This document shows positions 8,287 through 60,407 of a DNA stretch of 64,000 nt, in pieces. The DNA is taken from contig CACMET010000001.1 of NCBI GenBank assembly GCA_902612825.1, positions 35,014-99,013 on the forward strand, read 5' to 3'. Below the pieces are notes generated by a model. That model saw nothing but the letters and a program-made list of their open reading frames with translations, searched no databases and was not told the DNA's origin. Each line of letters opens with the position of its first letter. Positions within the stretch are counted from its first letter, which is position 1. The stretch comes from an uncultured Alphaproteobacteria bacterium (GTDB taxonomy: Bacteria > Pseudomonadota > Alphaproteobacteria > HIMB59 > GCA-002718135). A program made the position numbers and the translations under genes.

Positions 8287-9390
8287 ATGATAATAATTTT
8301 AACACAATGTTTTCCATCTAAAATAGGGGGAATTGAAACATTGATGTATGACATAGCATTAAATTTAAGTCATAAACACGATGTAAAGGTTTTAGCTGAC
8401 CAACAAAACAGTTCTAAGGATTTAGAATTTGATAAAAACAATAAAAATTTTTCAATATTAAGATTTAAGGGTTTAAAATTTTTAAGAAAAAGAAATAAAT
8501 TTAATCAACTTAAAAATATTTGTTCTTCAAATAATATTGAAGCAGTCATCACTGATAGCTGGAAAAGTCTTGAGTTACCAATTAATTTTTTAAAAGAAAA
8601 AAAAATTCCAATTATTAGCCTTGTTCATGGAAACGAAATAATAATCAAAAACAATAATCATCATAAACGAATAAAGAAAGTTTTAGAATTAGCAAACGCA
8701 TTGGTGGTCAATTCATCATATACTAAAAACTTACTTTCAAAAATAAGTAAAAAATTTAAAAAAATTGAGGTTATCCATCCAGGTGTAAAATCTACTAAGA
8801 ATATTATAGAACAAGCAATAGATTTAGATGATAGTTATCCAACGTTGCTTACTCTTGCCAGACTAGAAAAAAGAAAAGGACATTCGTATATTCTTAAATC
8901 TATTTTTAATTTAAAAAAAATTTATCCAGATATTCAATATATAATTGCTGGTGAAGGTGATCAGTTAGAGAATATAAAGAAAGAAATAAAAAATTATAAT
9001 CTAGAATCAAATGTGAAGTTAGTTGGAACAATAAATGAAAATCAAAAAAAATTCATTTTTTCTAAGACTGATATTATGATCATGCCGACAATAGATGAAA
9101 CTCATGCAAATTCTATTGAAGGTTTTGGTATCGCCTACATTGAAGCAGCACAATATGGAATTCCTTCAATTGCCTCAAATGTTGGAGGTACTCCTGAAGC
9201 TGTATTGCATAATAAAACAGGTTTAATTATTAATAATTTTAATGAATTAGATGAATCAATTAAGAATTTAGTTGAGAACAAACAAAATAGAATTGAATTA
9301 GGACAAAATGCAAAAAATAGAGCAGAAAATGAATTAATCTGGGAAAAACAAGTAGTAAAATACAATAAGTTAATAGATGATATTCAATGA
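8287..9390 (+). CDS. Glycosyltransferase family 4 (GT-B fold)
   Basis: 367 aa. C-terminal EX7E region EGFGIAYIEAAQYGIPSIASNVGGTPE. Confidence 0.85.
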   Translation: MIIILTQCFPSKIGGIETLMYDIALNLSHKHDVKVLADQQNSSKDLEFDKNNKNFSILRFKGLKFLRKRNKFNQLKNICSSNNIEAVITDSWKSLELPINFLKEKKIPIISLVHGNEIIIKNNNHHKRIKKVLELANALVVNSSYTKNLLSKISKKFKKIEVIHPGVKSTKNIIEQAIDLDDSYPTLLTLARLEKRKGHSYILKSIFNLKKIYPDIQYIIAGEGDQLENIKKEIKNYNLESNVKLVGTINENQKKFIFSKTDIMIMPTIDETHANSIEGFGIAYIEAAQYGIPSIASNVGGTPEAVLHNKTGLIINNFNELDESIKNLVENKQNRIELGQNAKNRAENELIWEKQVVKYNKLIDDIQ

Positions 9391-10319
9391 CTATTTTATT
9401 TCATAACACAACTTTTGATAAAATTGATGTTTGGAAAAAAACAATAAAAAAATATTTTAAAAATGAAAAAATAATTTCTATAAAAGATTATAAAAATTTT
9501 CATGATGTAAATTGTGCAATTATTTGGAATCTACCAGATAATATTCTTTCAAGACTAAAAAATCTCCAAGTTATTTTCTCTATGGGAGCTGGAGTAGATC
9601 ACATTCTAAAACTTAAAAATTATAATAAAAAAATTCCCATAATCAGAATAAAAGATGAAGAAATGGGGGAGAGAATTGCCAATTATTCTTTAGCTCAAAT
9701 ACTAAATTATCAATTAAATTTTAAAATTTTTCAAAACTCTCAAATCAAACAATACTGGTCTGGAGAAAGGACACCAATTGATAATAAAAATTTAACAGTA
9801 GGTATTCTAGGTCTGGGCTTTCTTGGTAATCATATTGCAAAATTACTAAATAAATTAAATTATAATGTTATTGCATATAAAAAAAATCGAGCAAAAGTAA
9901 AAAATGTAAAAATATATACAGGTAAAAATATTATAAGTTTTATCAAAAGCTCTGATGTTATAATTTCTATTCTACCGTCAACATCTCAAACAAATAATAT
10001 AATAGATAAAAAGTTTTTAAAGAATATGAAAAAAAATTCTTGTTTAATAAATATAGGCAGAGGAAATGCAATTGAAGAGAAAGATCTTCTAAATCATTTA
10101 AAGAAAAACAAAAATTTTTATGCTTATTTAGATGTCTTTAAAGATGAACCTTTAAAATCAAGTAGTCAATTTTGGAAACTGCCAAATGTAACTATTACTC
10201 CACACGTTGCAGGTGTAACAGCTATAGAGCCATCTGTTAAGTACATGTACTCCAAATATAAAAAACTAAGAAAAAATAAAAATATAAAATCAGATGTTAA
10301 TCCATCTCATGGATATTAA
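9387..10319 (+). CDS. ghrA: Glyoxylate/hydroxypyruvate reductase A-like D-2-hydroxyacid dehydrogenase
   Basis: 310 aa. Colinear with E. coli GhrA as recalled (SMGAGVD, GILGLGFLG NAD loop, GRG, ITPHVAG, C-terminal GY). Confidence 0.72.
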   Translation: MTILFHNTTFDKIDVWKKTIKKYFKNEKIISIKDYKNFHDVNCAIIWNLPDNILSRLKNLQVIFSMGAGVDHILKLKNYNKKIPIIRIKDEEMGERIANYSLAQILNYQLNFKIFQNSQIKQYWSGERTPIDNKNLTVGILGLGFLGNHIAKLLNKLNYNVIAYKKNRAKVKNVKIYTGKNIISFIKSSDVIISILPSTSQTNNIIDKKFLKNMKKNSCLINIGRGNAIEEKDLLNHLKKNKNFYAYLDVFKDEPLKSSSQFWKLPNVTITPHVAGVTAIEPSVKYMYSKYKKLRKNKNIKSDVNPSHGY

Positions 10320-11494
10320 TTAACATCAAAATAATTTTCTAAAATTCTAAAATAAATATTTTCTAATTTAATAATATCTTCAACAAAAACAAATTCATCT
10401 ACTTTATGAAGAGTTTGATTTCTAAGACCTAACTCTACTACTTCACAATAGTTCTTTATATATCTTGCATCTGAAGTACCACCATCGGTTGCTTGTTCAG
10501 GCGGACTATTTCTACCTGTGACATCAGAAATTGATTTTGAAATAATATTATATAAATCACCGGCTTTATTCAAAAATGACTCAGCTGTTGCATCATAAGT
10601 ATAAGTGCAACTAGCGTTTTCCAGTTTAGAGAAAATCTTTTCTATTTTATTATCAATCCATTTTATAAGTGAGTCAGATGAGTGCATATCATTAAATCTA
10701 ATATTAACTGTTGCTTTAGCTAATTCCGGAATTACGTTTTGAACAGGATTGCCAATATCAATAGTAGCGATTTGAACTGATGTTGGTAAAAAATTTTCAT
10801 TACCTTCATCTAGCGGCTTTTCTAATATACTATTTAATAAATTCACTAAGTGATGTGAAGAATTTTCAGCTAAATGAGAATTCGCAGTATGCCCTTGAAT
10901 ACCTTTTACCTGAAAAAAGAAACTAACTGATCCTCTTCTTCCAATTTTTACTTTATCTCCGACCTCATTTTTAGAAGTTGGTTCACCAACAAGACAATGA
11001 TCAAATTTATAATTTTGTTTACTTGCCCATTCTAGAATTCTTGGTGTGCCGTTTACAGAATCTCTTTCTTCATCTCCTGTAATAATGAATGAAATCTTAC
11101 CTGGAATATTTTTATATTTATCTACAAATCTTTTAGCGGCACTGATGAAACAAGCAACACTGCTTTTCATATCTTCACTACCTCTTCCATAAAGTTTACC
11201 ATTATCTATTCTTGCTGAAAAAGGAGGATATTTCCAAGAATTTTCATTTCCTACTGGAACTACATCTGTGTGACCAGCATAAGCAAAATGCTTTCCTTCA
11301 TTTCCTATCGTTGCAAATAAATTTTTTACTTCATAAGAATTGTTTCCAGAGAAAATTAATGGATGACAGTCACATCCTATAGCACTTAGATGATTTTCAA
11401 CGACTGTTAAAGCTCCCTCATCTTTTGGAGTTACACTTGCACATTTAACTAAGGATTGTGTAAGAGTAACTGGATCAAAATTAATTTCTGACAT
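10316..11494 (-). CDS. dapE: Succinyl-diaminopimelate desuccinylase
   Basis: 392 aa. M20 motifs AGHTDVVP, GRGSEDMKS, ITGDEE. Adjacent to dapD. Confidence 0.9.
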   Translation of the reverse strand: MSEINFDPVTLTQSLVKCASVTPKDEGALTVVENHLSAIGCDCHPLIFSGNNSYEVKNLFATIGNEGKHFAYAGHTDVVPVGNENSWKYPPFSARIDNGKLYGRGSEDMKSSVACFISAAKRFVDKYKNIPGKISFIITGDEERDSVNGTPRILEWASKQNYKFDHCLVGEPTSKNEVGDKVKIGRRGSVSFFFQVKGIQGHTANSHLAENSSHHLVNLLNSILEKPLDEGNENFLPTSVQIATIDIGNPVQNVIPELAKATVNIRFNDMHSSDSLIKWIDNKIEKIFSKLENASCTYTYDATAESFLNKAGDLYNIISKSISDVTGRNSPPEQATDGGTSDARYIKNYCEVVELGLRNQTLHKVDEFVFVEDIIKLENIYFRILENYFDVN

Positions 11495-31727: not shown

Positions 31728-32496
31728 TTATAATTATCAATATTCCAAAAATAAAAAAAGGTATACAAAGTATTTGCCCCATTGAAATAAAATTAAAAAA
31801 TAATCCTAGGTGCAAATCTGGTTCTCTGACGTATTCAATTATAAATCTAAATATGGAATAAAATATTAAAAAGAGACCACTAATTGCTCCATAAATTTTG
31901 TATTTTCTTGTCTTGTAAAAATAGATTAATAATATGAGAAATAAAATAATTCCTTCGAGAAAAGCTTCATATATTTGAGAGGGATGCCTTTGTATATTAT
32001 CTATTGATGGATAAATAACTGAAATATAAAAATCAGTTGGTCTACCTATTAGTTCTGTATTAATAAAGTTTGCAATTCTACCAAAAAATAATCCAATAGG
32101 AGCTACGATTGAAACTAAATCACATAGGTAGAAAAAACTTTTGCTATTAATTTTTGCAAAAATTAAAGTACTTATTATTATGCCCATCAACCCACCATGA
32201 AATGACATTCCTCCATTCCAAATTTCAAATAGATAAAAAGGATTAGTTAAAAATTCATTAAATTGATAAAAAATCACATAACCTGTTCGCCCTCCGATAA
32301 TTACACCTAATACTGCCCAAATAAGAAAGCTATCTATATTTTTATTACTGTATTGATTTCCATAAATTGGGTTTAATTTTTTAATAATATAAATTCCTAA
32401 TAGAAATCCCAAGATATATGCTAAACTGTACCATCTTATCTCGATGAAACCGATTGATACGATCACAGGATCTATTGATGGTTGAATAAAATTCAT
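31705..32496 (-). CDS. lgt: Prolipoprotein diacylglyceryl transferase
   Basis: 263 aa. FFGRIANFINTELIGRPT and RHPSQIYE motifs. Confidence 0.92.
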   Translation of the reverse strand: MNFIQPSIDPVIVSIGFIEIRWYSLAYILGFLLGIYIIKKLNPIYGNQYSNKNIDSFLIWAVLGVIIGGRTGYVIFYQFNEFLTNPFYLFEIWNGGMSFHGGLMGIIISTLIFAKINSKSFFYLCDLVSIVAPIGLFFGRIANFINTELIGRPTDFYISVIYPSIDNIQRHPSQIYEAFLEGIILFLILLIYFYKTRKYKIYGAISGLFLIFYSIFRFIIEYVREPDLHLGLFFNFISMGQILCIPFFIFGILIIINVKQKKN

Positions 32497-32519: not shown

Positions 32520-32810
32520 ATGGTTGATAGAAACAAAATACTTTCCGATTTATCAAAATTTGCGGTGGATGCTATGAGTACTTTTTCAGGTGTTAAAGAA
32601 GAGATTGAAACAATTGTATCTTTACGAGTTAACAAAATAATAAAAAAAATGAATCTTGTTAAAAAAGATGAATTTGATGCACTGAAAAAAATGGTGCAAA
32701 AAGTAATGATGGAAAATGAAAAATTTAAAAAAACATCTTCAAGATCAGTAAAATCTAAGAAAAAAACAGTCAAAAAGAAAAAAACTATTAAAAAGAAATC
32801 AAAAAGGTAG
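32520..32810 (+). CDS. UbiK/YqiC (BMFP) family accessory protein with Lys-rich tail
   Basis: 96 aa. Coiled-coil LVKKDEFDALKKMV pattern of the UbiK family. The antisense 113-aa ORF is low-complexity. Confidence 0.6.
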   Translation: MVDRNKILSDLSKFAVDAMSTFSGVKEEIETIVSLRVNKIIKKMNLVKKDEFDALKKMVQKVMMENEKFKKTSSRSVKSKKKTVKKKKTIKKKSKR

Positions 32811-47730: not shown

Positions 47731-49050
47731 CTAAATTTTTTCTCCTGCTGGTTTTCCATATCCAACATTTTTTTTCCCATATCGTCTTACTCTCACATTA
47801 CATTGTTCTGCATGACCTATAAAACCTTCTAAATGTGAAAGTCTAGATCCATATTCTCCAATGAGAGTTGCAGCTTCATCTGTCATAATCTTTTGATAAG
47901 TATGGGTTTTAATGAACTTACCAACCCACAAACCACCAGTATATCTTCCAGCTTTTTTAGTAGGAAGAGTATGGTTAGTACCTATCACTTTGTCACCGTT
48001 AGCAACATTAGTTCTAGCACCCAAAAATAGAGCTCCATAAGATGTCATATTTTCTAAAAACCAATCATCTTTTTTTGTCATAACTTGAACGTGTTCTGAA
48101 GCTATTTCATTTGCTTTAGATAACATCTCCTCATAAGTATCACATAAAATCATTTCTCCATAATCTCTCCAGCTTGTACTTGCTGTTTCTTTAGTAGGTA
48201 AAATTTCTAAAATTCTATCAATTTCTTTAAATGTTTCTTCTGCAAGTTTTCTTGAATTTGTTATCATCACAGCAGGAGAATTATATCCATGTTCAGCTTG
48301 TCCTAATAAGTCTGTTGCACATATTTCACCATCAACAGTTTCATCTGCAATTACCATTGTTTCAGTTGGACCGGCAAATAAATCGATACCAACTTTGCCA
48401 TACAATTGTCTTTTCGCTTCAGCAACAAATGCATTGCCAGGTCCAACAAGCATATCTACAGGTCTAATAGTTTCTGTACCAATAGCCATAGCACCAACTC
48501 CTTGCATTCCTCCCAAAACATAAATTTCGTGAGCACCACCCATTTTCATTGCTGTAACGACAGCTGGATTTGGCTTACCTTTAAAAGGCGGTGTAGTGGC
48601 AACAATTCTTGGAACCCCAGCAACAGAGGCAGTAACAACTGACATATGAGCAGAAGCTACCATTGGGAATTTTCCGGCAGGTACATAACATCCAACTGCT
48701 TGCACTGGTATATTTTTATGACCAAGTATCACACCTGGATGCGTTTCTACTTCTAATTCACTTAAAGTTTTAAGTTGTGCTTCCGCAAATGATCGCACTT
48801 GTTTTTGAGCAAATTTAATATCTTCTTTGTCATCATCAGAGACTTCACTCATTAATTGATTTATTTGCTCTTCACTTAATCTAAAACTATCTGGAGAATA
48901 GTTATCAAATTTTTGAGATAACTCTCTAATATGTTCATCTCCTTCTGATTCAATTTTACTTAATGTTTCCTCAACAATTTTTTTTACTTTATCATTATCT
49001 TCAATTCTTTGTTTTTCATCCAAACCTTTTTTTAAATATTCAATTGCCAT
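47731..49050 (-). CDS. Histidinol-dehydrogenase-family NAD-dependent dehydrogenase (HpsN-like candidate)
   Basis: 439 aa. GCYVPAG, GPGNAFVAEAK, GQAEHGYNSP, GTNHTLPT and GHAEQ regions retain HisD Zn/catalytic residues. No other his genes nearby. Confidence 0.85.
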   Translation of the reverse strand: MAIEYLKKGLDEKQRIEDNDKVKKIVEETLSKIESEGDEHIRELSQKFDNYSPDSFRLSEEQINQLMSEVSDDDKEDIKFAQKQVRSFAEAQLKTLSELEVETHPGVILGHKNIPVQAVGCYVPAGKFPMVASAHMSVVTASVAGVPRIVATTPPFKGKPNPAVVTAMKMGGAHEIYVLGGMQGVGAMAIGTETIRPVDMLVGPGNAFVAEAKRQLYGKVGIDLFAGPTETMVIADETVDGEICATDLLGQAEHGYNSPAVMITNSRKLAEETFKEIDRILEILPTKETASTSWRDYGEMILCDTYEEMLSKANEIASEHVQVMTKKDDWFLENMTSYGALFLGARTNVANGDKVIGTNHTLPTKKAGRYTGGLWVGKFIKTHTYQKIMTDEAATLIGEYGSRLSHLEGFIGHAEQCNVRVRRYGKKNVGYGKPAGEKI

Positions 49051-49052
49051 AA

Positions 49053-50150
49053 TTATTTTTTATGAATTAATTTAAAGATATCAATGCCTATTTGATCTAA
49101 TATGTGTGCAATATCGATTGGTACCCAATTTTCTCTAATTAACCCTTCATGATGTAAATAAAAATCCATAACTCTTATTGTAATTTTTTTATTAGTTGGC
49201 TCATAACCTAACCATTCTTTTGAACCATGAATGCATTCTATGCTATGCCAACCTCCAGTCATTGAATAATTACCATCACCAATTTCAATATAATGTCCAA
49301 TTTTCCAATAATCCCTTTCTTTAAATGTAAGTCTAAATGGAAGTTGATGATATTCTACATATCCTTTTAAACCTCTTGCAGTTCCTATTCCTGCAGGTCC
49401 GTGCCACATCATTTTTGGATGCCAATAATTTTTTTGAGGATGATTAAGTAATTTATCTCTTATATAATCTTTGTTTGAGTTTGGATCACTTTCGGGCTTA
49501 ATATTTAAACTTCGCTGCATGGTTAATGCTTGATTTAAAGATTCTAAAGATAATTCGTTGTCAAAATTTTCATTATTTTCTCCATCTCCAGTAATAGGCG
49601 CTGACCACATACCTTCTGCTCCTAAAGATTTATTAATTGGCCAGTGTCCAGCTTGTCTAATAAAATCAACTGTATCAATTAAAACATATGATTTTATAAT
49701 TTTACCATTAGAGATTTGATGAGCTTCGCAAGTTCTAAGATAAATATTTTTTTTTGTGGGTGTAACACCGAGCCATTCGTTGACAAATGTTCCAGTTAGA
49801 TAGCTAACAAACGATACAAATACTTTGTCTCTATAAGATCCTCCAATTACAATTATATTTCTTCTTTCGAGATCTGGAAAAGCTTCTTTTAGAGGTATCC
49901 AAAGTTTATTTTTTATATTCTCAACACCACTTATTTCATTTATTGGATGAAAAGCATTTAATTCAGCTTCTTCATGGTATAAGTTTTTTAAATTAACTCC
50001 TAATTCATCTAAAGGAGATTCAGCAACTTTATTTAATAAATATTTAAATTTTTTTTTATTTTCTAAATTTTCACTTGTACTTAAATCTACAAAAATTATT
50101 TTCTTGTTTTCTTTTTCCCCTGTTTCAAAATCTTCAATTTTATTTGTCAT
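49053..50150 (-). CDS. Tandem NTF2-like (SnoaL/ester-cyclase-like) protein, paralogue A
   Basis: 365 aa. Two SnoaL-like halves (FPDLERR... and ...MDFYLHHEGLIRENWVPIDIAHILDQIGIDIF). Clear paralogue of 59334-60407. Confidence 0.6.
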   Translation of the reverse strand: MTNKIEDFETGEKENKKIIFVDLSTSENLENKKKFKYLLNKVAESPLDELGVNLKNLYHEEAELNAFHPINEISGVENIKNKLWIPLKEAFPDLERRNIIVIGGSYRDKVFVSFVSYLTGTFVNEWLGVTPTKKNIYLRTCEAHQISNGKIIKSYVLIDTVDFIRQAGHWPINKSLGAEGMWSAPITGDGENNENFDNELSLESLNQALTMQRSLNIKPESDPNSNKDYIRDKLLNHPQKNYWHPKMMWHGPAGIGTARGLKGYVEYHQLPFRLTFKERDYWKIGHYIEIGDGNYSMTGGWHSIECIHGSKEWLGYEPTNKKITIRVMDFYLHHEGLIRENWVPIDIAHILDQIGIDIFKLIHKK

Positions 50151-50180: not shown

Positions 50181-50212
50181 TTGATTTATTCAATAATTTG
50201 AATAATATTCAA
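50181..50212. promoter_or_regulatory. Two adjacent palindromes TTGATT-TATTCAA (50181-50193) and TTGAATA-A-TATTCAA (50198-50212), candidate LacI operators
   Basis: Located in the 89-bp divergent spacer between the 49053-50150 and 50240-51211 operons. Same half-site as the perfect palindrome at 54360-54375. Confidence 0.5.
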
Positions 50213-50239
50213 AAAAAATGAATAAAATATCATAAAGAT

Positions 50240-51211
50240 ATGTCAATTAATATTACTACAAGATTAGCAAAATTTGAGGAACTTATTCCAAGTACTATTC
50301 CTTTTGTAGAAGGAAAATTAAAGGGACATCAAGATAGGAAAAATTATTCTGTTATAGGCCCAGGTGTTAGTGAAGATGCTAAACAAAATGTTAAAATAGC
50401 TGAAGCGCATGGCTTCAATATTGGAGCTGTAAGTGCTGCTCCAATGAACGGTTCTGGATTACATAGCCATACAACTGCTGAAGTATTTATAATTCATTCT
50501 GGTGCTTGGCGTTTCTATTGGGGAGTTGATGGCACAGAAGGAGAGGTAATACTTAAAAAAGGTGATATTGCTTCTTTCCCTACAAATATGTTTAGAGGTT
50601 TTCAAAATGTAAGCAAAGAAGAAGCGTTAATGTTTGTAGTTTTAGGTGAAAATGATCCAGGTGTAATCACTTGGACTCCAAAACTTTTAAAAGATGCAAA
50701 AGATTCTGGTATGGTATTAATGAATGATAATTCTTTAGTAGATACAGAAAAACAGAAAATTACTGATGAAACTAAAATTATTCAACCATTAAAAGAAGAT
50801 GAATTAAAGAGTTTTGATCATTATTCCTCAGAAGATATAGAAAAGTTTGTCATTCGATTTGATGAAAAAGATAAATACTTTGTTGATGATGAACACTATC
50901 AATCCAATAAAATTATTAATTACCTTGATCAATTTAATATTCATAATAAATCATTTATTCCAAACATACCGCATTTAACAGGATTTAGCCTTTCACTTCT
51001 CCATGGAAAAAATGCCCATATACATGAATACAAATTTGAGAAATCAGAAGTATATCATTGTTTATCTGGTGAATGGGAAATAGATTGTGATGGAGAGAAA
51101 GTAGTAATTAAGGACAAGGATACTTTTTCAGTACCAAAAAACTCATCACGATCAATTAAGCAGATAAGTGATGAGGATGGAAATTTATTTATTATAAGAC
51201 AAACAAATTAA
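50240..51211 (+). CDS. Bicupin protein
   Basis: 323 aa. N-terminal cupin motif GSGLHSHTTAEVFIIHSG...GDIASFP and a second C-terminal cupin barrel (EVYHCLSGEWEI...DTFSVP). Confidence 0.7.
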   Translation: MSINITTRLAKFEELIPSTIPFVEGKLKGHQDRKNYSVIGPGVSEDAKQNVKIAEAHGFNIGAVSAAPMNGSGLHSHTTAEVFIIHSGAWRFYWGVDGTEGEVILKKGDIASFPTNMFRGFQNVSKEEALMFVVLGENDPGVITWTPKLLKDAKDSGMVLMNDNSLVDTEKQKITDETKIIQPLKEDELKSFDHYSSEDIEKFVIRFDEKDKYFVDDEHYQSNKIINYLDQFNIHNKSFIPNIPHLTGFSLSLLHGKNAHIHEYKFEKSEVYHCLSGEWEIDCDGEKVVIKDKDTFSVPKNSSRSIKQISDEDGNLFIIRQTN

Positions 51212-51223
51212 GAATTCAGTTAT

Positions 51224-52198
51224 ATGAAAGGTTTTAATAACAAGTTTGAAAATCTTCCAGATTATATTCTAAAAATAACTCATCAGATATGGGAAGAAAA
51301 AGATGTTAACTCAATTATGGAATATTATGCTGAAAATATTCCTGTTAGATCACCTATGGGAATCATTTATGGACCTAATACAGTAGTTGATGCAACTAAT
51401 GCAACTTTAGACGAATTTCCAGATAGGCAATTATTAGGTGAAGATGTAATTTGGATTGGTAACGAAGATGAAGGGTTTTTATCTTCTCATAGAATTCTTA
51501 GTAAAGCCACTCATGTAAAAGATGGTTTATATGGGAAAGCAACAAATAAAAAACTTGTATACAGAGTCATTGCTGACTGCGCTTGTAAGAATAATCAAGT
51601 TTATGATGAATGGTTAGTTAGAGATCAAGGAGCAATTGTTAGACAGCTAGAAATAGATCCAAAAAAATATGCAGCAATTTTAATAAAGCAAGAAGGTGGA
51701 ATAAAGAATTGCATTAAACCATTTGATAAGAATTCATCTCAAGAAACAAGTTATGCACCACCAATTTTATCAAAAAATAATATAGCTGATCAATATGCAG
51801 AAAATTTAGAAAACATTCTTAATATTAATTCTAAATCTACAATTGAAAAAAATTATGACAGATCAGTTCAACAATTTCAACCAGGAGGTTTTGTTTGTTA
51901 TGGTATCGATGATGTAACAAATTTCTGGCTAAATTTAAGACAATCTTTCCCAGATGCTCTTTTTAGAATAGAACATAAAAGTTTTACTGTAGAAGAAAAT
52001 CAACCAAAAAAAGTTGCTATACGCTGGTCTTTAGTTGGGAAGCACAGTGGGAATGGTATATTTGGGCAAGCTTCTAATTCTGAGATTTATATTATGGGAA
52101 TTAATCATGCCGAAATAGGACCAAGAGGTATAAAGAACGAATGGGTTTTATTTGATGAAACTGCAATTTGGAAACAAATCTTGATAAAAACAGGTTAA
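51224..52198 (+). CDS. Tandem NTF2-like (SnoaL-like) protein, divergent member B
   Basis: 324 aa. Two halves each ending in the SnoaL-type pattern (NNQVYDEWLVRDQGAIVRQL; PRGIKNEWVLFDETAIWKQI) with FPD motifs. Confidence 0.55.
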   Translation: MKGFNNKFENLPDYILKITHQIWEEKDVNSIMEYYAENIPVRSPMGIIYGPNTVVDATNATLDEFPDRQLLGEDVIWIGNEDEGFLSSHRILSKATHVKDGLYGKATNKKLVYRVIADCACKNNQVYDEWLVRDQGAIVRQLEIDPKKYAAILIKQEGGIKNCIKPFDKNSSQETSYAPPILSKNNIADQYAENLENILNINSKSTIEKNYDRSVQQFQPGGFVCYGIDDVTNFWLNLRQSFPDALFRIEHKSFTVEENQPKKVAIRWSLVGKHSGNGIFGQASNSEIYIMGINHAEIGPRGIKNEWVLFDETAIWKQILIKTG

Positions 52199-52205
52199 TT
52201 AAAAA

Positions 52206-53333
52206 ATGTCTAAAATATTAACTACACATGTAGGCAGCTTGCCTAGATCAAAAGGACTTTCAGAAATTTTATTTTCTAAAGATCGGGGTGAAAAATTTAT
52301 TAAAGAAGATTTCAATAATATATTGAAAAAAAATGTTGAGACAATTGTTAAAAAACAGATCGAAGTTGGTATTGATTATATAAGTGACGGTGAAATGAGT
52401 AAAATAAGTTATGCCACTTATATAAAAGATAGGATAGATGGTTTTTCTGGAGAAAGTGAAAGAAGAGCACCAGCTGATTTAGATGATTTTCCAGAGTATA
52501 AAGAAAAAATAGCTAAAAGTGGGGGTACGCCAACGTATAGCAGACCGTGTTGTACTAATGCATTAAAAATCAAAGATAAAGATTCATTAAATAAAGACTT
52601 AGAGAATTTTAAAAATTCATTAGATAAAAACAATCATCAAAAAGCATTTATGAATGCTGCATCACCAGGTGTCATAAATGTATTTATGCCAAATAGGTTT
52701 TATAAAACAGATGATGAATATTTACATAAACTTTCAGAAATTATGGCTATTGAGTATGAGACAATTACTAAATCAAATATACAAGTGCAATTAGATTGTC
52801 CTGATCTTGCATTAGCTAGACATATGAATTTTAAGGAATTATCCCAACAAGAATTTTTAAAACGTGCGGAAATTCAAATTGAGTGTTTGAATGAAGCTTT
52901 AACTAATGTAGATGTTAATATGACTAGAATGCATATTTGTTGGGGAAACTATGAAGGACCTCATACACATGATATCCCACTAGAAAAAATATTACCAATA
53001 ATTTTAAAATCTAAAATTAAATATTTTTTAATTGAGTCATCAAATCCCAGACACGCACATGAGTGGAAAGTTTTTCAAGATATTAAATTACCAAAAGATA
53101 AAGTTTTAGTTCCTGGTGTTATCGATTCAACATCAAATTTTGTTGAGCACCCTGAGGTTGTAGCAGATAGATTAATTCAGTTTTCAACGGTAATTCCAAA
53201 AGACCAACTAATGGCTGGAACTGATTGCGGATTTAGTACTTTTGCAGGATTTGGCAAAATTGATGAAAATATTTGTTATGAAAAACTTCATTCTTTAGTT
53301 GAAGGAACTAAATTAGCAAACAAAGTTATATAA
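52206..53333 (+). CDS. Cobalamin-independent methionine synthase C-terminal-domain-like (core-MetE-like) Zn alkyltransferase
   Basis: 375 aa. N-terminal TTHVGSLPR. Candidate Zn ligands RMHICWGN (HxC) and GTDCGFS retained. Confidence 0.8.
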   Translation: MSKILTTHVGSLPRSKGLSEILFSKDRGEKFIKEDFNNILKKNVETIVKKQIEVGIDYISDGEMSKISYATYIKDRIDGFSGESERRAPADLDDFPEYKEKIAKSGGTPTYSRPCCTNALKIKDKDSLNKDLENFKNSLDKNNHQKAFMNAASPGVINVFMPNRFYKTDDEYLHKLSEIMAIEYETITKSNIQVQLDCPDLALARHMNFKELSQQEFLKRAEIQIECLNEALTNVDVNMTRMHICWGNYEGPHTHDIPLEKILPIILKSKIKYFLIESSNPRHAHEWKVFQDIKLPKDKVLVPGVIDSTSNFVEHPEVVADRLIQFSTVIPKDQLMAGTDCGFSTFAGFGKIDENICYEKLHSLVEGTKLANKVI

Positions 53334-53334
53334 T

Positions 53335-54333
53335 TTATCTAGATGTTTTTCTTTTTATTAACGTTCCTTGGATTAAATGACTAACGGCCTCATAATCTGG
53401 ATCTTTAATGTTATCATTAATAAGTTGAGTTACTAATTTTGACATTTGTCTCAAGGGCTGTTTTACAGTACTTAAATTGTAAGATGACCAGTTTGCCATT
53501 GAGATATCGTCATATCCAAATATTTCAATATCGTTAGGTATTTCAATTTTTGTATTTTTTTTAATGTAATCTAAACATCCAAATGCCATCGTATCATCTG
53601 CACAAAAAATAGCTGAGATTTTTTTATTCGTTAAGATTTTTGCTGTTGCAGCATATCCACCTTCATATGTAAAATTTCCTTTTTGAGAGTATAATTTTAA
53701 TTTTTTTGATTTTTTTAATTTATTTTTAAATCCTTTACATCTTTCATTACTTACATAAGATCCTGTGGGACCTTCAATTAAACCAACTTCCTGATGGTTA
53801 TTTTTGATTATTTGATCTGCAATTAATTCACCACCAAATCTATGATTACATGCAACTGAACTTATAGTAGGGATATCCCAAGCTCTATTATAGGCTATAA
53901 TTTGAATCTTTTTATTTAAGCAATTTTCAACAAATTGATCTGTTGGTTTAGTTGCTGAAATTATTGCAACTAATCTTTCTTTCAAATATGGCTGAATGAG
54001 CTTATCGTCTAATTCTTCACCATCATCAGTTGTTATCAATAAAATTCTAAAACCCGATAAACGTAGCGCTTCATGCAATTCAGTTAATACCTCTGGATAA
54101 AATCGATTGGTTATATAAGGTAAAATAACTCCCACTAGTCCACTATCTTCAATATTTTGAGAATCTTGCAAAAAAGTTTGAGGTTTATATTTTAGTTTTT
54201 TGGCAGCTTCAAGAACCCTTAGTTTTGTCCTGCTTGAGATGCTTGCACCTTTAGTAAAACATCTTGAAACAGCTGATTGAGATACTCCTGCTAATTTTGC
54301 GACATCTTGGGATGTGGCATTTTTATTCATCAT
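53335..54333 (-). CDS. LacI-family transcriptional regulator
   Basis: HTH ATSQDVAKLAGVSQSAVSRCF plus periplasmic-binding-fold core. The track start at 54375 is a TTG inside the palindrome. ATG at 54333, preceded by AAAGGAAAA, is preferred. Confidence 0.88.
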   Translation of the reverse strand: MMNKNATSQDVAKLAGVSQSAVSRCFTKGASISSRTKLRVLEAAKKLKYKPQTFLQDSQNIEDSGLVGVILPYITNRFYPEVLTELHEALRLSGFRILLITTDDGEELDDKLIQPYLKERLVAIISATKPTDQFVENCLNKKIQIIAYNRAWDIPTISSVACNHRFGGELIADQIIKNNHQEVGLIEGPTGSYVSNERCKGFKNKLKKSKKLKLYSQKGNFTYEGGYAATAKILTNKKISAIFCADDTMAFGCLDYIKKNTKIEIPNDIEIFGYDDISMANWSSYNLSTVKQPLRQMSKLVTQLINDNIKDPDYEAVSHLIQGTLIKRKTSR

Positions 54334-54359
54334 TTTTCCTTTTTTATGTATGCAAATGC

Positions 54360-54375
54360 TTGAATAATTATTCAA
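54360..54375. promoter_or_regulatory. Perfect 16-bp palindrome TTGAATAATTATTCAA, candidate LacI operator
   Basis: In the lacI / ABC-transporter divergent spacer, 27 nt upstream of the preferred lacI ATG and 59 nt upstream of the SBP start. Confidence 0.55.
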
Positions 54376-54433
54376 ACTGTTGCATTAATAAAATATTATA
54401 AATTAATATATTAATAAATTATAGGGGAAACAA

Positions 54434-55648
54434 ATGAAAAAAATACTAGTATTATTTGCGATTTTCACATCATTTTTTTTCTTAGCCGGTACTAATGCAA
54501 AAGCTTGCGAGCTAAACAATTCTGTACCAGTAACTTCTTTATCTGCAGGATTTGATGCCTGGAAAGTTGTTACTTCTGCTATGGAAGAGTGTGGAAATTT
54601 TACACCTACACTTGATCAAGAATACAGAGATAAGCTTGTTGCATCATTAGAAAGCAACCCATCTCAATTTACAATGGCAGGTGTTTCAGCTTCTACAAAT
54701 GTATCGGTTCTTGATGCTGGTGTAACTAGACCACTTGACGATCTAGTTGCTAAATATGGAGACTCTCTACAAGATAATCAAAAAATTGTAATTGATGGAA
54801 AAATTATGGCAATTGCAATGATGACAAATGCTCAACATTTATTTTACAGAGAAGATATTTTGAGTGATCTTGGTATAGATATTCCAACAACTTATGACGA
54901 GCTTTTGAAAGCTGCTAAAGTTATTAAAGATGCTGGAGTTGTAGATTATCCACTTGGTGGAACATTCAAGTCAGGTTGGAATTTAGGAGAAGAATTTGTA
55001 AATATGTATTTGGGCTTTGCTGATTCTTTTTTTGATGGAAATATGCCAGCAGTTAATAATAACGATGGCTATGAAACACTTAAGATGATGAAAAAACTAA
55101 CAGAATATATGGATCCTGAGTATTTAACTTCAGATTCTACATATGTTCAACAACAATTCCAACAGGGTAAGATTGCTCTTGCAAACCTTTGGGCGTCTCG
55201 AGCTGGTGCTATGGATAATGCAGAGGAGTCAACAGTTGTTGGATTAGTAAAGTTTGCATCAGCGCCTAAAGCAAAAAAGAATGGTAAACCAGCATCTACA
55301 TTATGGTGGGATGGTGTTGTTATAGCTAAAAATGTTACTGATGAAGAAGCAGAAGCAGCATTTAAACTAGCTATGGTTGGATTAGATGCAGCAAACTTAG
55401 GAGCGAACCCTGAAGCTGCTCCTTGGCTGTCTAATGCGTTTGATCCAGCTCCATCAAATATTGGTGCAATTTTAACTGCAAAATCTGGAGCAGCTCCTTA
55501 TCCTGCATCAGCAAAAATGAGCACACTCCATGGAGTCTTAGGTGCTGCTATTGGTGATTATTTGACTGGCGCAGCTACTGCAAAAGCTACTCTAGAAAAA
55601 ATTGAGGCTGATTATATTACTGCAGCAACAGAAAAAGGTCTCTTATAA
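54434..55648 (+). CDS. ABC transporter substrate-binding protein (family 1, CUT1 sugar/polyol type)
   Basis: 404 aa. Signal peptide, family-1 SBP length and pattern. Followed by MalF/MalG-type permeases. Confidence 0.88.
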   Translation: MKKILVLFAIFTSFFFLAGTNAKACELNNSVPVTSLSAGFDAWKVVTSAMEECGNFTPTLDQEYRDKLVASLESNPSQFTMAGVSASTNVSVLDAGVTRPLDDLVAKYGDSLQDNQKIVIDGKIMAIAMMTNAQHLFYREDILSDLGIDIPTTYDELLKAAKVIKDAGVVDYPLGGTFKSGWNLGEEFVNMYLGFADSFFDGNMPAVNNNDGYETLKMMKKLTEYMDPEYLTSDSTYVQQQFQQGKIALANLWASRAGAMDNAEESTVVGLVKFASAPKAKKNGKPASTLWWDGVVIAKNVTDEEAEAAFKLAMVGLDAANLGANPEAAPWLSNAFDPAPSNIGAILTAKSGAAPYPASAKMSTLHGVLGAAIGDYLTGAATAKATLEKIEADYITAATEKGLL

Positions 55649-55666
55649 TTTTATATAATTGTATAT

Positions 55667-55696
55667 TACTCCCCTTTTAAAATCTTAAGGGGGGTA
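55667..55696 (+). promoter_or_regulatory. Intercistronic GC-rich hairpin (10-bp stem) between the SBP and permease genes
   Basis: TACTCCCCTT-(10 nt)-AAGGGGGGTA with one G-U pair. The 3' arm contains the only SD-like purine run (GGGGGG) before the permease ATG at 55707. Confidence 0.5.
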
Positions 55697-55706
55697 ATAT
55701 TAGTAA

Positions 55707-56726
55707 ATGAAAAAATCTACTTTTTTAGTTTTTACAATGCCATCATTTATAATGATGACATTATTTATTGCCTTACCTCTTCTAATAGTTTTAATTCAAA
55801 GTTTTCAATTCAACCAAGATGTATTAGAAACGATTGAAAGAGAAAATTGCGATCCTTTTGGATGTAAAACAGAAACAATTACCGTTCCTGTATTAGATGA
55901 AAATGGAAATAAAATAAAAAATAATATTTGGGTAGGCTTTCAAAATTATAAAAATATTTTGAAATTTGAACAATTATCATCTGTTATTTCAAATGATGGT
56001 TTTGAATGGAGTAAAATAAGATCTATTGATTTTTATAAAGCTCTAAGGTTTACACTAACATTTACATTTATTACTTTACCATTTGTAATAATCTTAGGTT
56101 TAATATTAGCTCTATGCGTTAATGTTTTAATTAATAGATTGAAAGGTCCAATAATTTTTATAACCTTGCTCCCATTTATAATTACACCTGTAATAGGTGC
56201 TTTATCAATAAAATGGTTATTTATAGGAGATGGTATATTAACTTTATTTTTAGAAAATATTTTAGATAAAGATATTGCCCTATTTTCTCAAGGCTGGACG
56301 ATAGAGATTCTAATGCTTTTTTATAGAGTTTGGCACACTATACCTTTTGCCTTTGTTATTTTTTATGCAGGACTACAAACTGTCGATAAAGAAAAAATTG
56401 AGGCAGCATTTGTAGATGGGGCAAATAGACTTCAGCGTTTAAGATTTATTATAATTCCGCATATCATGCCATTAATAGTATTTGTTGCTTTAATTCATTT
56501 AATGGATTCATATCGAGTTTTTGATGAAATTGTTGGTTTTAGTGCTTCTGGATTTAGGATTTCATTACAATGGATGACTTATGATTTCTTGAGAATTGAT
56601 GATTCTGGAACAAGATCTATTGGAAGAGCATCAGCTACTTCTGTTCTTACAATGATAGGAATTATAATAATATTAATTCCAGTTTTAAGAAGAACTTTTA
56701 AAGAGCAAAAAGAAAAAAGATTATAA
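55707..56726 (+). CDS. ABC transporter permease (MalF/UgpA-like)
   Basis: 339 aa. EAA-loop region IEAAFVDGANRLQRLRFIIIP. Extended first periplasmic loop. Confidence 0.88.
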   Translation: MKKSTFLVFTMPSFIMMTLFIALPLLIVLIQSFQFNQDVLETIERENCDPFGCKTETITVPVLDENGNKIKNNIWVGFQNYKNILKFEQLSSVISNDGFEWSKIRSIDFYKALRFTLTFTFITLPFVIILGLILALCVNVLINRLKGPIIFITLLPFIITPVIGALSIKWLFIGDGILTLFLENILDKDIALFSQGWTIEILMLFYRVWHTIPFAFVIFYAGLQTVDKEKIEAAFVDGANRLQRLRFIIIPHIMPLIVFVALIHLMDSYRVFDEIVGFSASGFRISLQWMTYDFLRIDDSGTRSIGRASATSVLTMIGIIIILIPVLRRTFKEQKEKRL

Positions 56727-57859
56727 TGGAAAGTAAACTTTTTAACTTAACCACGCCTCTTAAAATTATTGTTTCAATTACAATAATTACGTGGTGTATA
56801 ATTGCTTTATTCCCTCTCTTATGGATTGTTGTAATGTCAATAAAACTTCCTGTTGATTCTTTTGCTTCCAATCCTTTAAAGGTAATAATTGGTCCAAGCA
56901 CAAAAGAACAGGTTGGAGGTCTATCTTTTGTTAACTTTATTTTTCTTTTTCTATCAATTTATTTGTTTTATAAATTATACCAAATAAGAAAAATTTTATT
57001 TGATTTAATTAATCCTATTTTAAAATTTTCTTTAATTACTTTTTTCATTTTATTCATTTTATATATAACTATTTCCTTCATATTATTTTTTTTAATTCAA
57101 AATAATTTATCTGAATTTGTAAATATATTATTTTCAAATTTAGAATTCTTAAAAATTTTTTCTTACCCAATAATAGGTTTTACTCCTCAGCATTATTTGT
57201 CTGTTTGGGTTGGTAATGAATTTTATAAACAATTCTTAAATACTATGATTGTAACAGGTGGGGTTGTTACAATTTCATTAACTGTTGGAACACTAGCTGG
57301 TTATGGATTAGCAAGAAGTAATTCTATGATTGCCTTTTGGCTTTTAATTTTTGCTTTAATTTTTAGAGCCTTACCTCATTCTGTTTTGGTTACTGGTTAT
57401 TTAGAACCTTTTATAAATTATGGATTATATGGAAAAAAAATTGCTGTTATTGTTTTGTTAGTAGCTATTAACCAACCTTTTACAATATGGATGCTGAGAT
57501 CATTTTTTATGAATATACCTCAAGATTTAGATGAAGCTGCTCAAATTGATGGATGTAATCCTTTTCAAGCTTTCTGGAAAGTTGTGATGCCTTTAATGTG
57601 GCCAGGTGTAATTACAACAGGATTATTTTCTTTCTTGTTAGCTTATAATGATTATCTTGTTGCAGCATTATTATTAGATGGACAATCACAAACTATGGTT
57701 CCAGCAATTATGCAATATTTTAATATGGAAACTAAAATGACAGATTTAGTTGAGTCAATTGCTGCTGCTGCATCAATTACCGCACCATTGTTTTTGTTAG
57801 TGATGTTTTTCCAAAAACAAATAGTGTCTGGTTTAACTCAAGGTGCAGTAAAGGGTTAA
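56726..57859 (+). CDS. ABC transporter permease (MalG/UgpE-like) with ~90-aa insertion
   Basis: 377 aa. EAA loop LDEAAQIDGCNPFQAFWKVVMP. Two additional hydrophobic segments at aa 66-85 and 101-124. Confidence 0.85.
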   Translation: MESKLFNLTTPLKIIVSITIITWCIIALFPLLWIVVMSIKLPVDSFASNPLKVIIGPSTKEQVGGLSFVNFIFLFLSIYLFYKLYQIRKILFDLINPILKFSLITFFILFILYITISFILFFLIQNNLSEFVNILFSNLEFLKIFSYPIIGFTPQHYLSVWVGNEFYKQFLNTMIVTGGVVTISLTVGTLAGYGLARSNSMIAFWLLIFALIFRALPHSVLVTGYLEPFINYGLYGKKIAVIVLLVAINQPFTIWMLRSFFMNIPQDLDEAAQIDGCNPFQAFWKVVMPLMWPGVITTGLFSFLLAYNDYLVAALLLDGQSQTMVPAIMQYFNMETKMTDLVESIAAAASITAPLFLLVMFFQKQIVSGLTQGAVKG

Positions 57860-57893
57860 CAATAATATGATAATTATTTATTAAAATTATAAG

Positions 57894-58553
57894 ATGAAAT
57901 ACAAAGCATTACTTTTTGGATCAATTGGAACACTGATTGAATCTTCTAATATCCAACGTAATTCATTTAACGAAGCCTTTAAAGAAGCTGGTTTAGATTG
58001 GTATTGGGACGAGCAAGATTATAGAATTTTATTAAAAAAATCAGGTGGCACTAAGAGAGTAGAAGATTTTGCAGAAAAAAATAATATCAATGTTAATGCA
58101 TCACAAATTAGAGATAGAAAAACAGAATTATTTAGTTCATTCATTATTCAAAACAAACAAAAATTAAGAGAAAGTGTTTATGAAATGATTAGATATACTA
58201 AAGATAATAATATTAAACTTGCATTCTCAACTTCTACAACTGTAAATAATGTAGAAGCTGTATTTGAAAGTCTTTCTAATCAAATTTCAAAAGCGGATTT
58301 TGATTTTATTGGAAATAGATCATTTGTTAACAATGAAAAACCTCATCCAGAGATATATAAAGTAACACTAGAAAAATTAAATTTAAAACCTGAAGAATGT
58401 CTTGCAATTGAAGATACAGAGGAAAGTAGTAATGCCGCTGTTAATGCAAGTGTTAAATGTATTGCATTTCCAGGTGATTTTCACAAAGAAGATAAATTTG
58501 ATATGTGCATCAAAAAAATGAATTTATTAGATCAAACCATTTTTTCATTGTAA
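57894..58553 (+). CDS. HAD-IA (CbbY/beta-PGM-like) protein lacking both motif-I aspartates
   Basis: 219 aa. Motif I reads FGSIGTL instead of FDxDGTL. Motifs II (FSTST), III (KPHPEIY) and IV (IEDTE) are recognisable. Confidence 0.75.
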   Translation: MKYKALLFGSIGTLIESSNIQRNSFNEAFKEAGLDWYWDEQDYRILLKKSGGTKRVEDFAEKNNINVNASQIRDRKTELFSSFIIQNKQKLRESVYEMIRYTKDNNIKLAFSTSTTVNNVEAVFESLSNQISKADFDFIGNRSFVNNEKPHPEIYKVTLEKLNLKPEECLAIEDTEESSNAAVNASVKCIAFPGDFHKEDKFDMCIKKMNLLDQTIFSL

Positions 58554-58566
58554 ATTATACGCATAA

Positions 58567-59334
58567 ATGTTTCTAAAAAAATTCGAAGTAAAAGATAAGA
58601 CTGCGCTTGTTACAGGTGCAGGTAAAGGGATTGGTAAAGCATCTGCAATCGCACTGGCAGAAGCTGGAGCAAATTTAATAATTATAAGTAGAACAGAAAA
58701 AGATCTTATAGCTGTTAAAAACCAAATTAAAAAAATTAAAAGAAAATGCAACTACTTTGTTTGTGATGTAACAAATTTAAAAGAAATAAAAAAAATATTT
58801 TCTAAAATTCCAAAATTAGACATATTAGTAAATAACGCTGGAACAAATAGGCCAGAATATTTTACTAAAATTAAAAGAAAAGATATGAGTGAAGTGGTTG
58901 ATCTTAATATTAAAGCATCATTTGATATTGCTCAATTAGCAACAAAAATTATGCTAAAATCAACAAATAGAAAAAAAAGTGGTGGATCAATTATAAATAT
59001 TTCATCTCAGTTAGGTAAAGTTGGAGCTCCTCTTAGAAGTGTTTACAATATGACCAAGTTTGGCGTTGAAGGTCTAACTAAAGGAATGGCTATCGATTTA
59101 GCAAAACACAACATTAGAGTTAATTCAGTTTGCCCTACATTTGTTGAAACTCCTATGGTTAAAAAATTTTTCAAAGATAAAAATTTTAAAAAATCTGTTA
59201 TTGAAAATATACCTTTAGGAAAAGTAGCAACAGAAAGTGATATTGCTAGTGCAGTAGTGTATCTTGCTTCTGATGCTGCATCGATGATAACTGGCTCTTC
59301 ATTAGTAATTGATGGAGGATGGACTGCTAAATAA
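58567..59334 (+). CDS. SDR-family oxidoreductase
   Basis: 255 aa. TGAGKGIG, NNAG and S...YNMTK catalytic motifs. Confidence 0.9.
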   Translation: MFLKKFEVKDKTALVTGAGKGIGKASAIALAEAGANLIIISRTEKDLIAVKNQIKKIKRKCNYFVCDVTNLKEIKKIFSKIPKLDILVNNAGTNRPEYFTKIKRKDMSEVVDLNIKASFDIAQLATKIMLKSTNRKKSGGSIINISSQLGKVGAPLRSVYNMTKFGVEGLTKGMAIDLAKHNIRVNSVCPTFVETPMVKKFFKDKNFKKSVIENIPLGKVATESDIASAVVYLASDAASMITGSSLVIDGGWTAK

Positions 59335-60407
59335 TGATTTCTAGAGAATTAAAAAATTTTTTTGCCAACTATCAGATTGCAACTCAAGCATTTAACAAAA
59401 AGACAATTGAAAAATCATTAAGCAATTATTTTACAAAAGAATCTTTATTTAATTTTTGCCATCCTTTTGGAACTTTTAAAGGTTTAAATAATTTTCTTTC
59501 TAAATGTATTTTGCCATTATTGGATAGTATCCCTGATCTAGAAAGAAGAGATATGATTATTATGGCGGGAAAAACCCCTGAAGGGCAAAAATGGATAGGT
59601 ACAATGGGTAATTATATGGGAACTTTTATAAAACCATACTTAGATATTCCACCAACAGGCAATTTAATTCATATGCGCTATCATGAGTTTTTTAAAATAG
59701 AGGAAAATAAAATTACTGAAGTACAATCTATTTGGGACTTACCTGAAATTATGATGCAAGCAAATGCATGGCCAATGTCTCCTCAACTTGGTGCATTTCT
59801 GTGTACCCCAGCTCCTATGACTGGAGATGGCTTGTCAATAAATGGAGAAAAGAAAGAAAATTTTGATCATATTATAGATATGTTAAATGATTTATCCTTA
59901 CATCCTAAAAATCCAGATCCAAAAATTATGAATCTAGAAAAATATTGGCACCCAAATCTTAATTGGTACGGACCAGCCGGAATTGGAACAGGTAGAGGTA
60001 TAGCAGGTTTCAGACATTGGCATCAAATCCCATTTTTAAGAGCAATGCCAGATAGAAAAGGTGGTTCATCAAATGAAAAATTAGCCACCGATGGCATGGA
60101 AGATTTGCAAACACACTGGATACATGAAGGAAATTATGTGTGTGAAACAGGTTGGCCTAATATGAGATTAACAATAACCAATGATGGCTGGATGGGTATT
60201 GCTCCATCAAATCAAGCACTAGAAATGAGAAGTCTTGATTTCTGGAGGCTAGAAAATGGTTTGATTAGAGAAAATTGGGTCTTAATTGATTTACTTGATA
60301 TTTATAGACAAATTGGAATCAATATATTTGACAGAATTAAAGAGTTTAATAAAGCTCGTCAAACAGGACATATCAATTTATCTGATGGATTAGATGTTTT
60401 AAAGTAG
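59334..60407 (+). CDS. Tandem NTF2-like (SnoaL/ester-cyclase-like) protein, paralogue C
   Basis: 357 aa. Shares IPDLERR, PxTGDG, YWHPxxxWxGPAGIGTxRG and GLIRENWVxID...QIGIxIF blocks with 49053-50150. Confidence 0.6.
   Translation: MISRELKNFFANYQIATQAFNKKTIEKSLSNYFTKESLFNFCHPFGTFKGLNNFLSKCILPLLDSIPDLERRDMIIMAGKTPEGQKWIGTMGNYMGTFIKPYLDIPPTGNLIHMRYHEFFKIEENKITEVQSIWDLPEIMMQANAWPMSPQLGAFLCTPAPMTGDGLSINGEKKENFDHIIDMLNDLSLHPKNPDPKIMNLEKYWHPNLNWYGPAGIGTGRGIAGFRHWHQIPFLRAMPDRKGGSSNEKLATDGMEDLQTHWIHEGNYVCETGWPNMRLTITNDGWMGIAPSNQALEMRSLDFWRLENGLIRENWVLIDLLDIYRQIGINIFDRIKEFNKARQTGHINLSDGLDVLK

Follow-up and report, generated by a model that had tools for sequence, protein, structure and literature searches.

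In the catalogue of Ravcheev et al. (2014, PMC4052901), autoregulation is found for 72% of transcription factors of the LacI/GalR family, and over 75% of their sites are located 30–140 nt ahead of a start codon. Their motifs are mostly even palindromes with a CG centre, a degenerate or non-CG centre being present in 78 of 1303 regulators; orthologous regulators usually keep a single half-site spacing, and approximately 4% of regulators have odd palindromes (PMC4052901). Here, two palindromes are described from a 64,000-nt stretch of DNA of an uncultured alphaproteobacterium (contig CACMET010000001.1; the whole stretch is hereafter called the window), where they lie in two divergent spacers of a nutrient-utilisation gene island of the ocean bacterium SAR11 that encodes a LacI-family regulator (lacI, 53335–54333). 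The locus resembles the local, autoregulated, divergent repressors of the family (PMC4052901) in that the regulator combines an HTH_LacI domain with an effector domain, the palindromes lie 30–140 nt upstream of the starts, one site precedes the regulator's own gene, and genes for an ATP-binding cassette (ABC) transporter and for enzymes are adjacent. The putative regulator/operator pair is of the LacI kind, but with rare features. Relative to the family norm (PMC4052901), the dyad centres are A/T-only and thus CG-less, an even and an odd dyad occur within one regulon in a fixed split between spacings of 4 and 3 nt (N4 and N3), two extra conserved half-sites flank each dyad to give an array of four half-sites, and the hinge of the regulator is degenerate and lacks the usual motif.

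On comparative sequence evidence, it is quite probable that the palindromes are operators of the regulator encoded at 53335–54333. An initial annotation of the window had read the architecture as LacI-family autoregulation plus control of target operons. This reading gains support from the footprints in orthologous loci, from the match of recognition helix and half-site in distant homologues, and from the co-conservation of the neighbouring genes; from these we infer binding and repression, together with promoter overlap and an inducer.

Arrays in two divergent spacers and their conservation

The palindrome in the 100-bp spacer between lacI and the gene for the ABC transporter's solute-binding protein (SBP), TTGAATAATTATTCAA, is perfect over 16 bp and lies at 54360–54375. 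The core of this putative central operator dyad, TGAAT-N4-ATTCA, occupies 54361–54374; the start of lacI (ATG, 54333) is 34 nt away from the dyad centre, and that of the SBP gene (ATG, 54434) is 66 nt away. The second putative central operator dyad, TTGAATAATATTCAA, lies at 50198–50212 in the 89-bp spacer between a tandem-SnoaL gene (SnoaL_A) and a bicupin gene, with its core, TGAAT-N3-ATTCA, at 50199–50211. Here the distance from the dyad centre is 35 nt to the bicupin start (ATG, 50240) and 55 nt to the SnoaL_A start (ATG, 50150). Both sites fit the LacI-family placement norm. An imperfect element, TTGATTTATTCAA (50181–50193; reverse complement TTGAATAAATCAA), ends 4 nt 5' of TTGAATAATATTCAA. 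All three elements and the 89-bp spacer had been reported in the initial annotation and were found again here, the spacer being flanked by start codons at 50150 and 50240.

Each dyad is the central part of a 36-bp array. On the lacI side (54350–54385), the four half-sites are arranged as ATGCA-N6-TGAAT-N4-ATTCA-N6-TGCAT, and on the bicupin side (50188–50223) as ATTCA-N6-TGAAT-N3-ATTCA-N7-TGAAT. The arrays are equal in total length, and their sole difference is that the third half-site is moved by 1 bp. The right half of TTGATTTATTCAA is the outer half-site of the bicupin array, and its left half gives an N1 dyad with a nearly invariant extension. Being nearly invariant in orthologues, TTGATTTATTCAA is apparently functional DNA; it is left unassigned as a LacI site because its N1 geometry departs from that of the N3 and N4 dyads.

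The window has a GC content of approximately 29%. TTGAATA-N0-6-TATTCAA occurs twice in it against 0.05 expected, a count reached in 0 of 100 shuffles. The DNA outside open reading frames (ORFs), 4,154 nt in total, contains two copies of the core TGAAT-N3/4-ATTCA against an expected mean of 0.077, and 0 of 300 Markov simulations gave two copies. The earlier caution that short palindromes arise by chance in AT-rich DNA holds for any single palindrome, which is at chance level, but not for this pair with the same core. The claim that no other copy is present in intergenic DNA of the window was also upheld, the remaining matches being coding. The only other perfect core, an N3 match at 32483–32495, overlaps the start of lgt, and a relaxed N3 match at 32669–32681 lies within a BMFP-family gene; these motif-like matches are separated by 190 bp, and both were dismissed as extra regulator sites because they are in coding sequence and within chance expectation. 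The lacI/SBP spacer also contains a further perfect palindrome, ATTAATATATTAAT (54402–54415), which is of the generic AT-only kind expected by chance and is not kept in orthologues.

A scan of one genome per species recovered 25 SAR11 loci in which the regulator is 70–100% identical to that of the window, and these were compared as stretches of approximately 20 kb. The position of the island is constant in all 25, between aminotransferase/PTA/EamA genes and the HisD-family gene. Phylogenetic footprinting, which the initial annotation had proposed, was positive, since the motif is retained in both spacers amid flanking DNA that has diverged. Mean column identity in the bicupin spacer is 0.94 in the array versus 0.56 in other non-coding columns, and in the lacI spacer it is 0.85 in the array versus 0.62 outside. 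All lacI spacers (29 distinct versions, including those of metagenome contigs) have TGAAT-N4-ATTCA or TGAAT-N4-ATGCA. All bicupin spacers have TGAATAWTATTCA, with N3 in 21 of the 21 orthologous spacers examined. The perfect core is almost confined to island spacers in the 25 loci.

The 1-bp spacing difference, which had been listed as a caveat, is therefore real and is retained in every orthologue. Arm spacing is not constant over the orthologous group; N4 is fixed at lacI and at an extra SnoaL spacer described below, and N3 is fixed at the bicupin gene. The array consensus at the lacI and extra SnoaL spacers is [wTKCA]-N6-[TGAAT]-N4-[ATTCA]-N6-[TGMAT]A. The N4 centres are AATT, TGAT, TAAT, AAAT or TTTT, and the N3 centres are AAT or ATT, such that the SAR11 sites do not have the even length with a central CG that is usual in the family, one of the two window sites being odd.

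Between lacI and a MetE-like gene, most other SAR11 strains have two additional tandem-SnoaL genes in divergent orientation (8974–11207 of locus L006; also L005, L010–L015, L020–L023 and L025), a pair that the window strain lacks. The spacer of this pair has its own N4 four-half-site array (10133–10168 of L006), a third copy of the array. The transporter slot holds two ABC versions among the strains (window 54434–57859 versus L006 4203–7413), with SBPs approximately 40% identical; the window's version is common to L004 and a few metagenome contigs. Spacers with the second version contain another palindrome, GTGTGAAATTCACAT, near the SBP ribosome-binding site (L006 7437–7447; L011 9887–9897). 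In L020 (9886–9898) it reads GTGCAAAATGCAC, with both arms altered together, and this palindrome could be a candidate site for another factor.

A metagenome scan with a 26-nt module pattern returned at least 120 loci, most of them unrelated and many of them GC-rich soil contigs; among the matches listed, 13 were island contexts and 2 had the expected pair of arrays. The scan was dropped as an estimate of regulon size. The pattern was also present, among the matches listed, in intergenic DNA of AT-rich contigs without island genes (including L083, L105, L106, L110, L112, L139, L173, L175, L192 and L193), which could be additional members of the regulon, short pieces of SAR11 DNA, or random matches in so large a collection.

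The regulator, its distant homologues and its hinge

The regulator (332 aa, minus strand) has an HTH_LacI domain (PF00356) at residues 9–52, scoring 45.9 bits against a cut-off of 27, and Peripla_BP_1, Peripla_BP_3 and Peripla_BP_4, which represent the periplasmic-binding-protein-like domain for effector binding and dimerisation, all score over their cut-offs. It aligns over its full length with structures of RbsR, CcpA, PurR and LacI, and its close homologues are named Pelagibacteraceae. The longest lacI ORF in a program-made list begins at TTG 54375 and takes in the palindrome; the start was placed at ATG 54333 because the N-termini of orthologues begin there.

The next 55 loci of the same scan provided a set of distant homologues, mostly from GC-rich Proteobacteria (Ruegeria, Leisingera, Sphingomonas, Pseudomonas, SAR324 and others), that are 29–37% identical to the window regulator (32–37% in all but one). 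The recognition-helix string LAGVSQSAVSR is present in 55 of the 55, and the loci contain 54 sites of the form TGMAT-N4-ATKCA versus approximately 5.7 in Markov simulations, with 0–9 sites for the other spacings. The motif is present in 34 of the 55 loci. Thus, this subfamily is like the SAR11 regulators in its recognition helix (VSQSAVSR), N4 spacing and neighbouring genes, and its half-site matches the SAR11 one except for C to A at position 3. Because the same helix, half-site and spacing recur in GC-rich genomes, AT-richness is no explanation of the sites, and this is the strongest argument that the dyads belong to this LacI-family protein. At several GC-rich loci, the site adjoins a recognisable promoter of the TTGACA...TATGAT type, apparently the classical position of a repressor. 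A consistent extra half-site was absent beside the distant GC-rich operators, and the four-half-site array therefore looks SAR11-specific. A literature search with the exact operator strings of the GC-rich subfamily returned no relevant paper.

The distant homologues differ from the SAR11 regulators in hinge and operator centre. CG is at the centre of 46 of the 54 distant sites, whose consensus is TTGCAT-nCGn-ATGCAA, and N3 sites are not enriched (6, at chance level). The hinge motif Y[RQ]PNxxA[RQ][SG]L is present in 55 of the 55 distant homologues, canonically as YRPNAIARSL, and also in RbsR and CcpA, but is missing from the SAR11 orthologues. In the latter, residues 7–50 are almost invariant and the following dozen residues are hypervariable. 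The window regulator has YKPQTFLQDSQ at this position, where RbsR has YAPSALARSL and CcpA has YRPNAVARGL; the leucine-lever arrangement (A-x-x-L after Y-x-P-N) is absent. Structural work on PurR and LacI has established that the hinge helices lie in the minor groove at the centre of the operator, where a leucine is wedged into the CpG step. The lack of a central CG, the other caveat of the initial annotation concerning the sites, is thus a real feature that accompanies the degenerate hinge; the SAR11 regulators, which have lost the hinge motif, are also those whose sites lack the CG and come in two spacings. In marine relatives of 37–40% GC, a canonical hinge still goes together with a CG centre. 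Loss of the hinge motif may have caused the CG-less centre or the mixed spacing. In one distant case (L054, a Hyphomicrobiales metagenome-assembled genome whose regulator has a canonical hinge), an N3 A/T-centred site, TGCATAATATGCA, lies at 9912 just upstream of the homologue's own gene, and two CG-centred N4 sites lie downstream; it is a single case among the distant homologues.

Two described repressors also accept more than one spacing. The lac repressor accepts both lac O1, which has one more base pair at the centre of its dyad, and the symmetric operator, which does without it. Of these the odd form is the natural lac operator, and the hinge is unaltered, whereas SAR11 has both forms naturally, each of them confined to its own promoter. 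Escherichia coli CytR, the known family member with relaxed spacing, tolerates variable distances between half-sites, which is ascribed to a flexible, unstructured interdomain linker (PMC3454398; Jorgensen et al. 1998). The sites assigned to the SAR11 regulator have two spacings within a narrow range (just N3 and N4, and perhaps N1), and its linker is hypervariable and non-canonical. CytR is an anti-activator that acts with cyclic AMP-CRP and recognises GTTGCATT octamer half-sites in another arrangement. Nothing in the SAR11 arrays suggests TGTGA-N6-TCACA, although no dedicated search for CRP sites was made. CytR is among the better NCBIfam matches of the window regulator, yet far under the cut-off, and the likeness is one of function and not of membership.

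Proposed switch and alternative explanations

In the proposed switch, a regulator dimer would read the TGAAT half-sites through its helix-turn-helix, occupying the central dyad of each array and possibly aided by the outer half-sites. The site in the lacI/ABC spacer would provide autoregulation together with control of the operon for transport, HAD, SDR and SnoaL proteins, and that in the SnoaL_A/bicupin spacer would control both divergent enzyme operons. Since an array takes up most of a short divergent spacer, bound repressor would hinder both outward promoters. A small-molecule inducer, probably the substrate of the cluster or an intermediate, would release the repressor. The SAR11 version probably descended from the wider subfamily with operator TTGCAT-nCGn-ATGCAA, its half-site having drifted to TTGAAT, with loss of the central CG and of the canonical hinge motif and with the use of both 13-bp and 14-bp cores.

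Several observations weigh against assigning the palindromes to this regulator. It is unusual in the LacI family for one dimer to use cores of two lengths (13 and 14 bp). The AlphaFold2 model is poor, with a mean predicted local distance difference test (pLDDT) score of 61.7 and values under 50 for residues 53–64, and is uninformative on the hinge. A scan for sigma-70 promoters found 0 canonical promoters in the bicupin spacer versus 2.1 expected in shuffles, and 2 matches in the lacI spacer versus 1.8 expected, such that overlap of operator and promoter can be proposed but is not seen in the scans, which are at or below chance level. Sigma-70 and terminator scans of both spacers were uninformative, and assignments by hand (−35, TTGAAT; −10, MATAWW) are only a suggestion. 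Finally, TTGAAT is like a −35 hexamer and TGMATAWW is like a −10 element, and promoter sequence could account for some of the conservation.

This last point leads to the alternative that survives best, although it is improbable: no transcription factor is involved, and the palindrome results from overlapping divergent sigma-70 promoters, with TTGAAT as −35 elements on opposite strands and the outer TGMATAWW as −10-like elements approximately 17 bp away. TTGAAT agrees with TTGACA at 4 of 6 positions, the distance from left arm to outer half-site is a constant 20 bp in both N3 and N4 arrays, as expected of a fixed −35/−10 spacing, and the arrays are placed where promoters must be, in spacers of 89–100 bp. 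However, the same dyad with N4 spacing is found with the distant homologues, and in their GC-rich genomes it is plainly distinct from the promoter hexamers; the motif is also missing from the other spacers of the window. The T that is conserved at −10 position 6 is absent from the outer elements of many strains, outer half-sites are often in the ancestral TGCAT form, and the promoter scan found nothing canonical in the bicupin spacer. Overlapping promoters would also leave both the SAR11 footprints and the half-site match in distant homologues unexplained, and they are only partly an alternative, since operator half-sites may double as promoter elements.

Somewhat less probable still is that a different regulator binds the sites. 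The A/T centre and mixed spacing are atypical of the LacI family, and binding by the adjacent protein is itself deduced from sequence. Yet no second regulator gene was seen in the island, and the motif accompanies the LacI-family regulator across the 25 orthologous loci and 34 of the 55 distant ones. The general LacI-family operator consensus is TGnAAnCGnTTnCA, and the outer TG...CA at ±7 and ±6 fits the shape of LacI-family operators.

It is very improbable that the nested inverted repeats act as a hairpin in a 5' leader RNA or as a DNA cruciform. The lacI-side transcript (54334–54390) does have a predicted fold of −13.5 kcal/mol (z = −5.1), but folds of the bicupin spacer are ordinary (z approximately −1.5), where the N3 dyad would form an A/U-rich stem with a loop of 3 nt. 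Covariation is absent, L007 and L016 have an uncompensated TGAAT...ATGCA, the outer stem is 73% paired with 376 of 500 shuffles equalling the observed pairing, and no Rfam match is present in the window. Lastly, although generic perfect 7+7 palindromes (50 in the window; 5 in non-ORF DNA versus 4.1 expected) and the lone half-site (39 in the window versus 41.8 expected) are at chance level, the notion of chance palindromes in a 29% GC genome is effectively refuted by the pair of same-core dyads (2 versus 0.077 expected) and by retention of the motif across approximately 30% protein divergence of the regulator.

Target operons, the conserved cluster and its substrate

Four transcription units lie around the two palindromes, in agreement with the gene map of the initial annotation, and would be controlled together if the sites belong to the LacI-family regulator. 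One presumed target operon (54434–60407, plus strand), a single unit as judged from tight gene spacing, comprises genes for a CUT1-type SBP, two permeases, an HAD hydrolase, an SDR and a tandem-SnoaL protein. Its transporter part consists of the binding protein and the two permeases and includes no ATPase gene, as in distant clusters. A second (50240–53333, plus strand) comprises the bicupin gene, a tandem-SnoaL gene and a MetE-like gene (Meth_synt_2), and is co-conserved with the regulator. A third (47731–50150, minus strand) comprises a tandem-SnoaL gene and a gene for a HisD-family dehydrogenase (47731–49050) closest to HpsN.

The genes of the set lie beside the regulator homologue in many of the 55 distant loci, where HisD-family genes are present in 40, SnoaL in 32–37, SDR in 33, MetE-like in 32, bicupin in 31 and ABC parts in 19–23. 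The whole set was observed beside the homologue in Ruegeria, Leisingera, Sphingomonas, Pseudomonas, SAR324 and others (L026–L080), for example at L059 600–14500, L036 1–14000 and L048 8500–21000. Because these enzyme genes are co-located with the homologue in many distant loci, they appear to constitute a conserved catabolic cluster with a dedicated regulator. A literature search for the combination of SnoaL, histidinol dehydrogenase, cupin and LacI genes returned nothing relevant.

The HisD-family protein scores 400 bits with 8v35 and 358 bits with 8wwe (solved HpsN structures), versus 261 bits to the best HisD, and its close homologues carry the Joint Genome Institute (JGI) label sulfopropanediol 3-dehydrogenase. 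By these scores the HisD-like gene of the window is closer to HpsN (sulfopropanediol 3-dehydrogenase) than to histidinol dehydrogenase; its product is 75% identical to the copy in the Ruegeria cluster. An hpsNOP/TRAP (tripartite ATP-independent periplasmic transporter) context was not found around the window gene, which sits with genes for LacI, SnoaL, bicupin, MetE-like and CUT1 ABC proteins. A SAR11 HpsN homologue (CuHpsN, PU1002_02401), presumably an orthologue of the window gene, has been described as having a Km of approximately 106 mM for (R)-2,3-dihydroxypropane-1-sulfonate (R-DHPS) and as promiscuous and unclustered (PMC11131964), and uptake of DHPS in SAR11 has been ascribed to a TRAP protein and not to a CUT1 system (PMC13335735). 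Given the poor Km for R-DHPS and the TRAP-based uptake, DHPS may not be the real substrate of the HpsN-like gene in this LacI-controlled cluster.

Three further leads were dropped. The neighbours of the Pseudomonas homologue (L064), namely an HpsN-like gene, a 493-aa protein without a Pfam match and an MFS transporter, were uninformative on the substrate. The SBP of the island was not identified in a survey of SAR11 solute-binding proteins (PMC11485210). In the homarine (hom) operon, the "lacI" is part of a cloning vector, and the genes differ from those of the island.

It is a tentative and rather doubtful proposal that both things hold jointly, i.e., that the SAR11 regulator reads CG-less 13- and 14-bp dyads within a four-half-site array through a decayed hinge and that its regulon is a cluster spread across Proteobacteria whose substrate is not DHPS. 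The decayed hinge might then be a compact, CytR-like solution by which one protein closes two back-to-back promoters in a streamlined genome.

SAR11 bacteria are described, in one part of the literature on them, as having few transcriptional regulators (PMC13198564), and for this reason an operator–regulator pair with a putative regulon of four operons would be a handle on substrate sensing in SAR11. Ocean surveys count hpsN transcripts as DHPS catabolism (PMC11131964); if the substrate is not DHPS, then abundant SAR11 "hpsN" transcripts would report on a different compound. The joint loss of hinge motif and central CG, together with the fixed N3/N4 split, would be a natural test of the role of the hinge in spacing and centre recognition. 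The importance of the system would grow if the link between hinge and spacing, or the re-assignment of SAR11 "hpsN", proves true, and the identity of the inducer of the LacI-family regulator would name the substrate of a cluster that SAR11 shares with Ruegeria, Sphingomonas, Pseudomonas and SAR324.

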